Below the pieces are notes generated by a model. The model did not search any database. It saw only the letters and a program-made list of their open reading frames with translations, and had not been told where the DNA came from. Positions 3,025 to 19,628 of a stretch of 19,628 bases of DNA are shown one piece after another; within the stretch, counting starts at the first letter, position 1, and each line of letters begins with the position of its first letter. Made by a program: the position numbers and the translations under genes. Source of the DNA: a virus; the UHGV virus genome UHGV-0278008. One strand, 5' to 3'.

Positions 3025-3030
3025 GCCCAT

Positions 3031-3055
3031 AAAAAAAGCCCCTCCGGAGAGGGGC
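3031..3055 (-). terminator. Intrinsic terminator, minus strand (end of TerB-like transcription unit)
   Basis: gcccctc/gaggggc stem with 4-nt loop; A7 on plus strand = U-run on minus. Confidence 0.5.
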
Positions 3056-3305
3056 TGACGCTGCGTATCTGTATCATCATGCGCATGGTGCCGGGTGCCT
3101 CCCGGTGAGTTCAGTCCGGTGTCCCTGAACCCGCGTATCTCGATCCAGGTTGTCGTCAGAGATGACACCTTATACACCAGTCGCCCCTCCGCACAGGGGG
3201 ATTCACCATGCGAAATTTTTTTAACAAATGCTCAGTCTGACAGGCAACTGTCAACTGACTGAATTGTGAGACATTTAAAATTTTCGGGGCATGACTGATA
3301 CCCGG

Positions 3306-4068: not shown

Positions 4069-4145
4069 GGCGCGTTGTACTGGATTCGAACCAGTGACCG
4101 ATTGCTTAGAAGGCAATTGCTCTGTCCGGCTGAGCTAACAACGCA
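4069..4145 (-). tRNA. tRNA-Arg, anticodon UCU, CCA encoded
   Basis: Hand-folded cloverleaf: acceptor gcgttgt/acaacgc, D-arm gctc/gagc, anticodon loop cttCTaa, T-loop ttcgaat. Confidence 0.8.
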
Positions 4146-4158
4146 GTGTACCGATAAT

Positions 4159-4235
4159 GGACCGCCATCGAGGACTCGAACCCCGCGCAACCAGCTTCGA
4201 AGGCTGGCGCTCTGTCCCGATGAGCTAATGGCGGT
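4159..4235 (-). tRNA. tRNA-Arg, anticodon UCG, CCA encoded
   Basis: Acceptor ccgccat/atggcgg, anticodon loop ctTCGaa, T-arm cgggg-ttcgagt-cctcg. Confidence 0.75.
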
Positions 4236-4244
4236 ATGTGATAT

Positions 4245-4320
4245 GGTGGCCCTTGCTGGATTTGAACCAGCGACCTGGCGATTATGAGTCGCTCGCTCTC
4301 ACCACTGAGCTAAAGGGCCG
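4245..4320 (-). tRNA. tRNA with anticodon CAU (Ile2-type or Met), CCA encoded
   Basis: Acceptor ggccctt/aagggcc, D-arm gctc-agtggtga-gagc, anticodon loop ctCATaa, T-loop GGTTCAAATCC; same order as ileZ-argN-argO of Stx phages. Confidence 0.8.
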
Positions 4321-8415: not shown

Positions 8416-8571
8416 TTACTTCTCAGATTCGTAGTCTACGAAGACAGCAACCTCCGTCTGGCCGGTTCGGATTCGTACCTCGCAGAGGTCTTTCCTCGTT
8501 ACCAGTGCCGTCACTATGACGGTTAAACAGATGACGATCAGGGCGATTAACATCGCCTTTTGCTGCTTCAT
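8416..8571 (-). CDS. hok: Hok/Gef-family type I toxin (51 aa)
   Basis: MKQQKAMLIALIVICLTVIVTALVTRKDLCEVRIRTGQTEVAVF... is near-identical in pattern to HokD/HokC. Confidence 0.85.
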   Translation of the reverse strand: MKQQKAMLIALIVICLTVIVTALVTRKDLCEVRIRTGQTEVAVFVDYESEK

Positions 8572-8628
8572 AGTCTGCTTCTCCTTGACCTTTCGGTCCG
8601 TAAGAGGCAATCTATATGTGACGAGCAT
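8416..8628 (-). CDS. Mok-like in-frame N-terminally extended reading frame over hok (70 aa)
   Basis: ATG at 8628..8626 with GTGAGG SD; MLVTYRLPLTDRKVKEKQTM- extension resembles recalled MokC N-terminus. Confidence 0.45.
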   Translation of the reverse strand: MLVTYRLPLTDRKVKEKQTMKQQKAMLIALIVICLTVIVTALVTRKDLCEVRIRTGQTEVAVFVDYESEK

Positions 8629-8671
8629 ATAGGGGCCTCACTTCGATTTATAGTCGGGTGGGGCTTTTATC
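8600..8671 (+). ncRNA. Candidate Sok-like antisense RNA; 5' end not determined
   Basis: Plus-strand hairpin gcctcac (8634-8640) / gtggggc (8660-8666) plus U-run 8667-8670, antisense to the mok SD/start; TTGACC at 8585-8590 is a possible -35. Confidence 0.35.
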
Positions 8672-8816
8672 TATCTGCCGTTGGTGTTCATGCCCGAGGC
8701 AGATAGCCTCAAGCACCCGCAGCAATTTTACAAAAACAAACTATTATTTTCTATGTCCTTTCACTTGTCTCATTTCTGACTATACTGATCGCTCACACAA
8801 CACAAAAGGTATAAAA

Positions 8817-15608: not shown

Positions 15609-15666
15609 CCATGTGTAGTCTTTGGTGGCATCAGTTCTACTCCGTGACTGCTCTGCCACCCTTTTT
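15609..15666 (+). ncRNA. dicF: DicF-like sRNA (3' two-thirds conserved, including terminator)
   Basis: GGTGGCATCAGTTCTACTCCGTGACTGCTCTGCCACCC+TTTTT closely matches recalled DicF 3' region GGCGGUAUCAGUUUUACUCCGUGACUGCUCUGCCGCCCUUUUU; 5' boundary uncertain. Confidence 0.6.
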
Positions 15667-16149
15667 AAAGTGAATTTTGTGATGCGGTGAATGCGGCTAA
15701 GCGCACGCGGAACAGTTAAAACAAGCGGTCTTTTACTGGCGTAACAGACATCAACTAACAATCCGGCGTTAATTGTTAACTGGTTAACGTCACCTGGAGG
15801 CACCAGGCACTGCATCAACAAAGTTCACTTCGGTGATGAAGGGTAAGAGAAAATGTTGAATGTAGCTATTGAAAACCAGAATGGGTGGAATTATAGTGCA
15901 CCTGCACCTCATAAAGCGGGTGCCGGGCGTGGAAACCCGATGATGACTACTGCGCATAACCGCGCTCAGGCGGTTTTTTTATGCGTAATGCACAGCCACA
16001 TTCAGATTATGGTGGGGCGTGCAGGGCAGCCGAAAGGCTGGCCGGTTTCGGTAGTCACCGGTATTTCCACCCCTGTACGTCTCACCACCCTTATGGTCGT
16101 GGAAAGCCTTGGTGGTGAGTTATTTAAACTGACTATCGAGGCTGCCATC

Positions 16150-16707
16150 ATGGCTACTATCCCTGCCCTTTCTCACCCTGACGTAACCATCGAAAATGGA
16201 CGCGCTGTCACTACGTCTATTGCGATCGCTGAGTTCTTTGGTAAACGCCACGAACGAGTGTTGGATAAAATTCGCAATCTGGACTGTTCAGCAAAATTCA
16301 CTGAGCACAATTTTGTGTCGAGCGAATATACCGACTCAACCAGTCGCAAACTCCCAATGTACCAAATCACCAAAAACGGCTTCGTTTTCCTGGTGATGGG
16401 CTTCACCGGCAAAAAAGCCGCTGCATTTAAAGAAGCCTACATCGCTGAGTTCGATCGCATGGAGAAAGAACTGCGCCAGAATAACGCCCCGTCTCCCGAC
16501 AAAATGATTCACGGGGACGGACGTACCATGGTTATCCGTCTCGACGAACACGGCAATATCAAATTCACTGAAACCGTTCCGGACGGCGCAATGGTCTGCA
16601 CCCTGGATACCTTCCAGTTTTACCTGGAGAAACAAGGCTGGACTCTTGTAAACCGGAGCGCAATTAAAAATATGACTGTGGAGCAATTACTAAAAATTCA
16701 TTGTTGA
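16150..16707 (+). CDS. Rha / ORF6N-domain phage regulatory protein (185 aa from ATG 16150; ORF open from 15853)
   Basis: GAGG SD before ATG 16150; ORF6N/Rha-like motif VTTSIAIAEFFGKRHERVLDKIRNL; upstream in-frame region contains a terminator-like hairpin. Confidence 0.6.
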   Translation: MATIPALSHPDVTIENGRAVTTSIAIAEFFGKRHERVLDKIRNLDCSAKFTEHNFVSSEYTDSTSRKLPMYQITKNGFVFLVMGFTGKKAAAFKEAYIAEFDRMEKELRQNNAPSPDKMIHGDGRTMVIRLDEHGNIKFTETVPDGAMVCTLDTFQFYLEKQGWTLVNRSAIKNMTVEQLLKIHC

Positions 16708-16717
16708 GGACGCGATA

Positions 16718-16906
16718 ATGGAAACGTTATTACCAAACGTTAATACGTCTGAAGGGTGTTTTGATATTGGTGTTCTGCTCAGTAACCGGGAGTTTACTGA
16801 AGATGCCATTAAGATGAGAAAATATGAGCCTTATCTTCTCAATGATAATTCCATACTCTCCAGAATTGCCCTTCTTGAACTTGGTATTTTCGGAGAACAT
16901 CAATGA
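16718..16906 (+). CDS. dicB: DicB-like cell-division inhibitor (62 aa)
   Basis: METLLPNVNTSEGCFDIGVLLSNREFTEDAIKMRK... matches recalled DicB N-terminus (MKTLLPNVNTSEGCFEIGV...); GAGGA SD. Confidence 0.8.
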   Translation: METLLPNVNTSEGCFDIGVLLSNREFTEDAIKMRKYEPYLLNDNSILSRIALLELGIFGEHQ

Positions 16907-17091
16907 CTTCAGCATTTGCACTGGTGATGACGGTTTTTCTTATAACGGGTGAATCACAGAATGTGATTACCGGAATTTATGCCAGTAAAGAATCCTGCCT
17001 CCAGGCAAGAGACGAGCAAAAAATTTCTGGTGAATGCCTCCCGTTAAAAAAAGTATCGCTGTACCTGAATAACGAAACACCGGCTGGATAA
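16903..17091 (+). CDS. YdfD-like small protein with N-terminal hydrophobic segment (62 aa)
   Basis: ATGA overlap with dicB-like stop; MTSAFALVMTVFLITGE...; position as ydfD in Qin. Confidence 0.55.
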   Translation: MTSAFALVMTVFLITGESQNVITGIYASKESCLQARDEQKISGECLPLKKVSLYLNNETPAG

Positions 17092-17183: not shown

Positions 17184-19628
17184 ATGAGCACTGATAAAGA
17201 AGAATTTTCGCTATATTGCGAAGCAAAAAATGACAAGGTCAGAAAACGCCTTGGGATTAAAGGGGGTTTTTACTGGACTACAGCAAAAAAATTATCTGTT
17301 GCCATCTCACGGTGCGTTGTTGCAATGGACGATGCTGGATTTGACGAAGAGGATTTCAAAAAAACTGTTCGCGTGAATTTGCCCATTGTTAATGACCTGC
17401 CGCCTGAAGGTGTGTTTGATACCGAATTCTGCAACCGCTATGAAAAAGGCGGGGAAGATGGCATCACAATGATATTTATAGCGCCTTCCCCCTTAGTTCA
17501 GGACAAACCAGCCAGCACTGACAATACCAACGTCAATGGCGAAGACATGGCTGAGATTGAGGATAATATGCTCCTGCCGATTTCCGGTCAGGAACTGCCC
17601 ATTCGCTGGCTTGCGCAACATGGCAGCGAAAAACCGGTAACGCACGTTTCACGGGAAGAACTTCAGGCATTACATATCGCACGAGCTGAAGAACTGCCTG
17701 CTGTTACTGCCCTGGCTATTTCCCACAACACAAAGCTGCTCGACCCGCTGGAGATTCGCGACCTTCACAAACTGGTACGCGACACAGACAAAGTTTTCCC
17801 TAATCCCGTTAATTCCAGTCTGGGGTTAATGACTGCTTTTTTCGAAGCATACCTGGACGCTGACTATACCGATCGAGGTCTGCTGACAAAAGAGTGGATG
17901 AAAGGAAATCGTGTTTTACGCATCAGCCGCACGCCATCCGGCGCTAATGCTGGCGGAGGAATTCTTACCGATCGCGGTGAAGGTTTTGTCCACGATGATG
18001 CGTCAGTGGAACGTGACGTTGCCGCTGGCGTTCTGGCCCGTTCAATGGACATCGATATTTACAATCCACATCCGGCACACGCCAAACGCATTGAAGAAAT
18101 CGTTTCAGAGAATAAGCCGCCCTTTTCTGTTTTTCGTGACAAATTCATCGCCATGCCTGGTCACCTGGATTATTCCCGCGCGATAGTGGTTGCGTCCGTG
18201 AAAGAAGCACCAATTGGTATCGAGGCTACTCCCCACCGTGTTACCGAATATCTGAACAAAGTACTGACCGAAACCGACCATGCCAACCCTGATCCAGAAA
18301 TCGTGGATATTGCCTGCGGTCGCTCCTCTGCTCCAATGCCGCAGCGTGTAACAAAAGAAGGAAAACAGGATGATGAAGAAAAACCGCAGCCATCTGGCGC
18401 AATGGCAGATGAACAGGCAACGACTGAAGCAGTGGAACCGGATACAACTGAACATAATCAGGACACGCAGTCGATGGATGCTCAGCCACAGATAAATTCT
18501 GTTGATGCGAAATATCAGAAACTGCGTGCAGAACTCTATGAAGCCAGGAAAAACATTCCACCCAAAAATCCTGTCGATGCAGATAAATTACTGGCTGCTT
18601 CTCACGGAGAATTTGTTGAAGGGATTAGCGACCCGAATGATCCAAAATGGGTGAAGGGGATTGAAACCCGCGATTCTGTGAACCATAACCAGCAAGAAAC
18701 GGAACAGAAAGGCCATAAAGCGGAACAACACAGTCCAAATGCGCAACAAAACGAGCCAGAAACGAAACAGCCTGAACCAGTAGCGCAACAGGAACCGGAA
18801 AAAGTCTGCACAGCCTGCGGTCAGACCGGCGGCGGCAACTGTCCTGACTGTGGCGCGGTGATGGGCGACGCAACATACCAGGAGACATTCAACGAAGAAA
18901 GCCAGGATGAAGCCCGGGAAAAAGATCCGGAGGAAATGGAAAGTGCCGGACTCCCGAACAAGGAGTGCACCGAAGGCGATCAACATGCCAATGGCAATAA
19001 TGAAACAGGCGAGACAGCAAATCCCTTAATTAAGGTGAACGGTCATCGTGAAATCACATCCACCAGCAGGTTGTGGCACCATCTGATGATTGACCTTGAA
19101 ACAATGGGCAAAAATCCTGATGCGCCAATAGCCTCAATAGGCGCTGTATTTTTCGATCCACAAACCGGAGAGCAGGGGCCTGAATTCAGCAAAATAATTG
19201 ATATGGGTACATGTGGCGGCACTGTAGACATAAGCACCATCGAATGGTGGCTTCAACGCTCTGGCGAAGCCCGTGCCGCCATTTTAGCTGATCGAATACC
19301 GCTTGATGATGCGCTTTTACAATTACGGGAATTTATAGACGAAAACTCCGGTGAGTTTTTTGTTCAGGTCTGGGGAAATGGAGCCAACTTCGACAACGTG
19401 ATTTTACGCCGTTCATATGAACGGCAGGAGATCCCCTGCCCGTGGCGTTACACCAATGATCGCGATGTAAGAACGATGGTCGCTCTGGGGTTGGTGATGG
19501 ATTTCGATGCCCGCAACGTCACCACATTTGAGGGTGAACGCCATAATGCCCTGCACGATGCGCGTTACCAGGCAAAATACGTTTCAGCTATCTGGCAAAA
19601 ACTGTTCCCAAATCAGGCTGATTTTTAA
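17184..19628 (+). CDS. RecE-like protein (exodeoxyribonuclease VIII-like N-terminal region) with C-terminal DEDDh/DnaQ-type 3'-5' exonuclease domain, 814 aa
   Basis: GAGG SD; C-terminal motifs MIDLET (DxE), [15 protein letters not shown] typical of DnaQ-like exonucleases; CxxC...CxxC (CTACGQ...CPDCG); stop is last codon of window. Confidence 0.75.

Follow-up and report, generated by a model that had tools for sequence, protein, structure and literature searches.

What does a RecE-type protein do once its own nuclease has been exchanged for an exonuclease of the DEDDh type? The question is raised by virus genome UHGV-0278008, of which the whole stretch of 19,628 nucleotides (nt) that was analysed is called the window throughout; its last gene is a single intact open reading frame (ORF) of 814 amino acids (aa), with an ATG start codon, the sequence GAGG upstream, and a stop codon that coincides with the final base of the window. 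A preliminary description of this gene had pictured some 600 N-terminal residues resembling the non-catalytic part of exonuclease VIII (RecE), followed by a DnaQ-type 3'-5' exonuclease in place of the RecE 5'-3' nuclease, and had likewise put the stop codon at the window end. Small corrections aside, this description is confirmed and its interpretation supported by the analysis reported here.

The RecE-like part extends to ≈ 616 residues. Residues 58-616 align with residues 50-591 of K-12 RecE (taken from the Rac prophage) at 74% identity in BLASTP, which found no similarity to K-12 RecE past RecE residue 591; in the DNA, similarity to recE covers 17522-19030 and breaks off at codon 616. Pfam places aa 55-189 in the exonuclease VIII family PF06630 (Exonuc_VIII, E = 5.9e-34), and the exodeoxyribonuclease VIII equivalog of NCBIfam (PRK09709/NF007259) is matched only over model positions 1-602 of 877, with a score of 1070.2 bits that stays below the curated cut-off of 1269. 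The C-terminal part is covered by family PF16473 (Rv2179c-like, aa 632-804) over the full length of the model (1-177 of 177), with E = 1.5e-62 and 210.9 bits against a gathering cut-off of 27, and no PD-(D/E)XK family was matched by Pfam anywhere in the 814-aa protein. The match quality of both assignments is far beyond chance. A PD-(D/E)XK C-terminus or an N-terminus unrelated to RecE, the two outcomes which the preliminary description had named as speaking against it, were found neither by Pfam nor by NCBIfam or BLASTP.

The three DEDDh motifs lie where they had been placed before: Exo I (MIDLET) provides D637 and E639, Exo II (GNGANFD) D737, and Exo III (HNALHDA) the pair H787-x4-D792. Of 18 homologues aligned, fused as well as free-standing, 17 keep this catalytic pentad. 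In the AlphaFold2 (AF2) model, built from 31 sequences, three segments are well ordered (aa 1-100, 120-390 and 632-811) and three are predicted to be disordered (aa 391-437, 491-541 and 557-627), with a predicted local distance difference test (pLDDT) score of 74-92 for the DEDDh head. When the head was compared with the PDB by Foldseek, the best match was T4 DexA (8KEL, E 2.5e-7), and further neighbours were RNase T, the CBASS-associated exonuclease Cap18, ERI1, Orn and REXO2, with a probability of 1.00 for each of DexA, RNase T, Cap18 and Orn. DexA was also the sole sequence match of the window protein in the PDB (phmmer, E 4.4e-7). Profile, predicted fold and intact pentad thus identify the C-terminal ≈ 183 residues as a predicted DEDDh exonuclease, whose polarity would, judging from its homologues, be opposite to that of RecE. 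Among the fused homologues, a representative of a 50%-identity cluster with 752 aa (P0166) carries Lys at the position of E639 and Ala at that of D737; its head is probably catalytically dead, yet retained on the scaffold.

A Q/E-rich linker and a zinc-ribbon-like motif had been described ahead of the head. Both are present, with the cysteines spaced CxxC-x7-CxxC (CTAC at 542-545, CPDC at 553-556), not CxxC-x11-CxxC as had been given; however, as the Q/E-rich tract and the CxxC-x7-CxxC motif are both found in canonical K-12 RecE, they come with the RecE scaffold and do not distinguish the fusion. Residues 617-631 then lead up to the point that corresponds to the start codon of free-standing homologues, which begin MNHLMVDLET or MNNLMIDLET exactly at the start of the fused head. 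An internal translation start at M635 was considered and rejected, no Shine-Dalgarno sequence being present ahead of it.

Seven intact copies of the gene were compared for the ratio of non-synonymous to synonymous substitutions (dN/dS). For the head, dN/dS amounts to 0.10-0.28 at a synonymous divergence (dS) of 0.5-1.2, both against the window copy and between other well-diverged copies, and to ≈ 0.35 when set against the copy that diverges most, from E. albertii; the zinc ribbon gives 0-0.14 and the acidic linker 0.3-0.9. The low values for the head in diverged, intact copies indicate that the gene is maintained and is not a decaying chimera. It is also abundant: in a survey of 5,426 complete E. 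coli genomes, 1,224 hold a copy covering at least 80% of the gene (whole-gene query), and the head alone, at blastn sensitivity and the same minimum coverage, is found in 4,071, with a median of two copies and up to eight. Identical or near-identical proteins with PF06630 plus PF16473 occur on hundreds of contigs each, the best 120 protein matches are all at least 98% identical to the window protein, and the fused form is represented in the PHROGs families phrog_2082 and phrog_20376. The Prokaryotic Genome Annotation Pipeline (PGAP) names the protein 'exonuclease' or '3'-5' exonuclease' and sometimes '3'-5' exoribonuclease'. The architecture is thus very common and already known, and its class has been noted in recent literature; because it is already catalogued and annotated, the sequence feature as such is not a discovery.

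The fused gene is one member of a mosaic set. When representatives of 50%-identity clusters were searched with the N-terminal part, 228 clusters were returned; among the best 150 of the 228 representatives (phmmer), 14 carry a DEDDh head, 19 a PD-(D/E)XK head, and many neither. Ten long representatives of the last kind were scanned with Pfam, nine of them without recognizable C-terminal domain and one with a RecE-N::RecT join. This last protein, P0123 (703 aa), has the RecE N-region directly joined to RecT (PF03837, aa 528-678), its nuclease domain apparently deleted, and could represent either a genuine variant or the outcome of a deletion. In E. coli the commonest form, found in Tritos, mEp460, O157 and Qin, has 823 aa and shares 56% identity with the window protein over aa ≈ 305-813 of the latter (≈ 80% in the head), while its first ≈ 280 residues are unrelated to the window protein and give no PF06630 match. 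The K-12 pseudogene ydfE in Qin, considered at first as an N-terminal remnant of the window gene, showed no similarity to it in direct comparison, and this assignment was rejected. At 100% identity, ydfE matches residues 1-254 of the intact 823-aa exonuclease that occupies the same site elsewhere (L012 4079-4840 versus L040 2626-5094), from which it follows that K-12 lost the gene through insertion of IS2E (IS2). In the window gene, the DNA similarity to Rac recE (up to 19030) and that to the Qin/Tritos-type 823-aa gene (from 18576), 82% each, overlap for ≈ 450 nt, a middle module that also takes in the Q/E-rich tract, the zinc ribbon and the larger part of the acidic linker. This overlap offers a simple route for homologous exchange of heads and tails, and the middle module is likely a substrate for such swapping recombination.

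A scan of genome contigs gave four further loci. The two copies from E. albertii are intact, and the one from Shigella flexneri SFBU0723 (L009 5000-6950) is split into short ORFs and hence a pseudogene. The fourth, an intact 812-aa copy with 76% identity over the queried region, lies on a contig (L007) labelled as a metagenome-assembled genome of Veillonella parvula, which is almost certainly a mis-binned Escherichia prophage contig.

As to the genomic setting, the window is 99.98% identical to a stretch of the chromosome of E. coli CP55_Sichuan, where the gene (100% identical) is annotated as 'exonuclease', WP_172615554.1. The window could not tell whether a RecT-like annealase follows, and the preliminary description had asked for recT or bet to be sought downstream. 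In CP55_Sichuan there is neither; the gene is followed on its 3' side by a DUF4224 (excisionase-like) gene, a tyrosine integrase, tRNA-Ser and the host gene mtfA. No adjacent recT, bet, erf or sak was found there or in six other contexts, i.e., mEp460, STEC435, vB_EcoS-640R1, O157:H7 ATCC 43890, the prophage at the Qin site and Tritos. The order dicB, DUF1482/ydfD, exonuclease, xis, int is shared by E. coli CP55, STEC435, O157:H7 ATCC 43890 and 20220828076 (the prophage at the Qin site), and by the phages vB_EcoS-640R1 (a partial genome including host flank), mEp460 and Tritos, the last two being plaque-forming phages; dicB and a ydfD-like gene precede the exonuclease gene in all related prophages and phages examined. 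The intact E. albertii ORF (823 aa) has two others behind it, a short one and one of 376 aa, which are xis-like and int-like by size only. Promoter-like sites that could give the gene a promoter of its own were no commoner than in shuffled sequence. The gene closes the early-left operon (dicF-dicB-ydfD) in a lambda-like prophage and lies just upstream of xis, int and the tRNA-Ser attachment site.

A further property of this DNA is its wealth of Chi sites (GCTGGTGG). Nine occur in the window, between 1939 and 19067, where 0.67 would be expected, and none of 200 shuffles of the window reached this number. Seven of the nine lie on the minus strand, equivalent to the top strand of lambda as conventionally drawn, and the extended locus (L001 1-23780) has, within its prophage part, ten sites on this strand versus two on the other. 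Lambdoid phages without an anti-RecBCD function are reported to be Chi-rich and probably dependent on host RecBCD (PMC12315714, Genome Res 2025), and the strand-biased excess observed here fits this published class. The same study reports 3'-5' nucleases of the DnaQ-like kind from the Rec modules of lambdoid phages and from positions close to int, and defines a 'Tritos' class whose Rec module consists of a nuclease only, with Chi counts from 21/6 to 7/2 (PMC12315714, Table 1). The locus studied here matches this class in its abundant, top-strand-biased Chi sites, counted over the part of the prophage examined, and in an early-left operon that has a nuclease and, as judged from the early ORFs in the covered part of the prophage (window plus extension), no annealase, single-stranded DNA-binding protein (SSB) or anti-RecBCD gene. 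Phage Tritos itself carries the sibling exonuclease gene at the same operon position. One Chi site lies within the fused gene, in the linker just ahead of the head; it occupies the same position in all seven other fusion genes checked, despite a dS of 0.5-1.2 nearby, and is missing from K-12 recE. It may have been retained either for the peptide or as a Chi site.

The Chi excess, the missing annealase and anti-RecBCD genes, and the sibling in Tritos lead us to read the gene as a nuclease-only Rec module. On balance, and going by sequence comparison and modelling, it is somewhat probable that the protein, as a product of the early-left operon in a phage of the Tritos class, acts as a 3'-5' DNA exonuclease and processes DNA ends alongside host recombination. 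One polypeptide combines the non-catalytic body of RecE (alpha/beta domain, helical domain, disordered acidic tracts, zinc ribbon and flexible acidic linker), joined at aa 616, with a head of the DexA/Rv2179c type that has a complete two-metal active site. Upon induction, the protein would remove nucleotides from free DNA 3' ends in a Mg2+-dependent manner, while the RecE body may supply the same assembly or targeting that it supplies to RecE. Trimming of 3' tails and flaps on linear phage DNA would turn the ends into substrates for host RecBCD-Chi-RecA recombination; alternatively, the enzyme may clear up intermediates of recombination and replication. As the substrate, DNA is considered more likely than RNA because the nearest characterized relatives, T4 DexA and E. 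coli EcD, are DNases. Since neither an annealase nor a RecBCD inhibitor is encoded in the part of the prophage covered, the protein is not regarded as a partner in a pair of the RecET type. The literature searched contained no experiments on the fused protein.

Several points weigh against this proposal. The blunting of ends draws on what is generally known of the end requirements of RecBCD, and neither for aa 1-100 nor for the RecE-type body did the fold search return an informative structural neighbour. Pfam has named PF16473 after an exoribonuclease. In O157:H7, a prophage with a frameshifted integrase, which looks defective, still has an intact exonuclease gene; such retention in apparently defective prophages fits a host-beneficial role, e.g., defence, as well as a phage role. 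Finally, 3'-5' exonucleases usually inhibit homologous recombination (PMC12315714).

The nearest competitor is a function in superinfection defence, in which the head would digest the DNA of invading phages (T-even DNA modified with 5-hydroxymethylcytosine, 5hmC, or DNA modified otherwise), spare that of the host, and depend on the RecE body for positioning only. The model for such a function is the system named 'HREX' by its authors, who solved the structure of T4 DexA and report both DexA and EcD as 3'-5' DNA exonucleases; EcD is described as degrading T4 DNA that contains 5hmC and as protective for E. coli even when its expression is leaky (PMC12153337, NAR 2025). The published EcD primers led to a 189-aa ORF on IMG/VR contigs, which has the Ala78 given for EcD in that paper; the encoded protein is a PF16473 member, 40% identical to the window head (E 1e-36), and its gene (L033 5682-6248, minus strand) resides in the early region of a P2-like prophage together with a Cox-like gene, an integrase and a Dam methylase, so that the system of the 'bacterial' EcD is itself phage-borne. 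This homology and the retention in defective prophages make an EcD-like role plausible, and the spread of the head through E. coli genomes, with a median of two copies, speaks in its favour too. On the other hand, W152 of DexA, which stacks on 5hmC and is needed for its recognition (PMC12153337), aligns with Thr757 (W754 lies three residues upstream), and this column holds Trp in only 8 of 18 homologues and Cys or Tyr in close relatives of the window protein. D90, which serves tetramer formation in DexA and is replaced by Ala78 in EcD, is retained as D709. D169 pairs with D773 in phmmer, in a column of the family alignment that is mostly Gly, including the EcD-like protein. As far as the alignments go, the HREX determinants do not transfer cleanly to the window head. 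Furthermore, PADLOC returned a weak and generic match only (Cas-associated DEDDh, E 1.8e-4), the same domain is widespread in virulent phages, and the gene lies behind toxic dicB in an operon that, from the biology of dicA/dicB in Qin, is expected to be silent in lysogens, with no promoter of its own that stands out. A defensive role, though plausible, is thus considered rather unlikely.

A smaller chance still is given to an exoribonuclease like Rv2179c, RNase T or Orn, which would trim the 3' ends of phage or host small RNAs (sRNAs) and mRNAs, e.g., DicF, or degrade short RNA oligonucleotides; the family name, the fold neighbours RNase T, ERI1, Orn and REXO2, the occasional PGAP annotation and the upstream position of DicF point this way, but the sole PDB sequence match and the closest characterized relatives are DNases, free-standing homologues reside in DNA recombination modules, and the scaffold derives from a DNA exonuclease. 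Illegitimate or homologous recombination in a decaying prophage could also have joined a recE remnant to a neighbouring exonuclease gene without any function arising. Lambdoid genomes are mosaic and contain odd joins such as P0123, degraded copies exist in Shigella flexneri and in K-12 (ydfE, IS2), and one representative has lost two catalytic residues; nevertheless, the constraint on the head in intact, diverged ORFs, the 14 clusters with a DEDDh head on this scaffold, the conservation of the pentad and the presence of the gene in plaque-forming phages render a functionless chimera highly improbable. No more credible is a RecE-like recombination exonuclease that pairs in trans with RecT or Bet of another prophage in the same cell. 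E. coli genomes usually hold several lambdoid prophages, the RecE body is retained, and the N-terminal part is reported to enhance linear-linear recombination in full-length RecE (review PMC11611040), but the RecE nuclease domain, genetically sufficient alone with RecT (PMC11611040), is missing in its entirety, which makes such pairing unlikely, and in addition the expected polarity is opposite and no annealase is adjacent in the contexts examined.

Returning to the proposal of a nuclease-only Rec module, a wider idea may be offered with little confidence, namely that the RecE body is a modular carrier on which lambdoid phages swap heads of opposite polarity via the shared middle segment. Self-sufficient phages would carry the PD-(D/E)XK head together with RecT, and Chi-rich, RecBCD-dependent phages the DEDDh head alone, as an accessory that prepares ends for RecBCD. 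The linker Chi might help the head swap or belong to the Chi complement of the phage. The literature searched describes neither a link between head type and recombination strategy nor a tethering role for the RecE body. The matter is of some consequence, as the gene is among the commonest E. coli prophage genes, with several copies in strains of enterohaemorrhagic E. coli (EHEC). If a 3'-5' head does serve phages that rely on RecBCD and Chi, this would help to explain the recombination-dependent growth of lambdoid phages without Rec genes of their own or a RecBCD inhibitor; if the head acts like EcD, it would represent a widespread prophage-borne defence. The gene would also provide a handle on the role of the N-terminal ≈ 600 residues of RecE, which is of relevance to recombineering tools.

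The features of the fused gene and of its upstream context are compiled in the table. Some further observations concern the remainder of the window. According to Rfam, isrK (15904-15980, plus strand) and a C4 antisense RNA (16005-16092, plus strand) lie inside the 5' part of an ORF for a Rha-family regulator (15853-16707); their position there suggests that the start of this ORF may have been over-called, or an antirepressor-type RNA switch may be embedded in it. A sok antitoxin RNA beside a Hok/Gef gene, the sRNA STnc100 and three tRNA genes (8569-8718, 3025-3240 and 4071-4319, minus strand), the latter for Arg, Arg and Ile in the RefSeq annotation, are typical cargo of EHEC-type lambdoid prophages.

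Table. Position of the fused exonuclease gene, its domains and motifs, and the upstream elements of the same operon in the window
Feature	Position (nt)	Strand	Basis or remark
Complete ORF, RecE-type scaffold plus DEDDh exonuclease, 814 aa	17184-19628	+	ORF, Pfam
aa 1-100, small alpha/beta N-terminal domain	17184-17483	+	predicted structure, high confidence
aa 55-189, RecE N-terminal family PF06630 Exonuc_VIII	17346-17750	+	Pfam
aa 120-390, well-ordered segment	17541-18353	+	AF2 model
aa 391-437, acidic E/Q/D-rich tract, predicted disordered	18354-18494	+	AF2, BLASTP; same in RecE
aa 465-616, middle module	18576-19030	+	DNA similarity to Rac recE and Qin/Tritos-type gene
SDPNDPKW motif in the middle module	18627-18650	+	
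aa 542-556, CxxC-x7-CxxC zinc-ribbon-like motif	18807-18851	+	conserved in RecE; low model confidence here
aa 557-631, acidic linker, predicted disordered	18852-19076	+	AF2, BLASTP
Chi site (GCTGGTGG on the minus strand) in linker codons (ITSTSR)	19060-19067	-	recE homology ends 30 nt earlier; DEDDh domain follows closely
aa 632-811, predicted DEDDh (DnaQ-like) 3'-5' exonuclease domain, Rv2179c-like/DexA family	19077-19616	+	profile, fold, motifs
aa 635-640, Exo I, MIDLET	19086-19103	+	
aa 731-737, Exo II, GNGANFD	19374-19394	+	
aa 787-793, Exo III, HNALHDA	19542-19562	+	
DicF sRNA	15610-15661	+	Rfam; same early-left (dicB-type) operon, upstream of dicB
dicB	16718-16906	+	upstream context
DUF1482/ydfD-like gene	16903-17091	+	upstream context

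Among the known systems, RecE of Rac (exonuclease VIII) shares with the window protein its residues 50-591, including the PF06630 region, the helical domain, the acidic tracts, SDPNDPKW, the CxxC-x7-CxxC motif and the acidic linker, and both genes are located in an early-left operon near xis and int. In contrast, the PD-(D/E)XK 5'-3' nuclease domain of RecE (≈ 592-866, or ≈ 564/606-866 as otherwise delimited) is replaced by the DEDDh head, the first ≈ 57 residues of the window protein differ, and no recT stands next to its gene. The founder of PF16473, M. tuberculosis Rv2179c, shares this Pfam family with the window head, whose match spans the entire model, but it is a chromosomal single-domain exoribonuclease which phmmer against the PDB does not reach, and its substrate preference is not transferable because it is too distant. 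T4 DexA (8KEL/8KEN) and EcD have the DEDDh fold and catalytic residues in common with the head, and differ as free-standing proteins of ≈ 190-227 aa without a RecE body.

Also related to the head are the 'exonuclease' of mEpX2 and the 'DnaQ' of epsilon34 (PMC12315714), 55-57% identical to the head and likewise encoded in the early-left operon. These free-standing lambdoid DnaQ-like nucleases are separate proteins of ≈ 180-190 aa, and the gene of mEpX2 (55% identity) is part of an Erf-SSB-exo-Abc2 recombination module, flanked by Erf, SSB and Abc2, whereas the window head is tethered to a RecE body and has none of these partners beside it. A counterpart in layout is the 823-aa exonuclease of Tritos, mEp460, O157:H7 and the Qin-type prophages, which agrees with the window gene in operon position, middle module, DEDDh head and linker Chi, and differs in carrying a YdfE-type N-terminus where the window gene has the RecE type.

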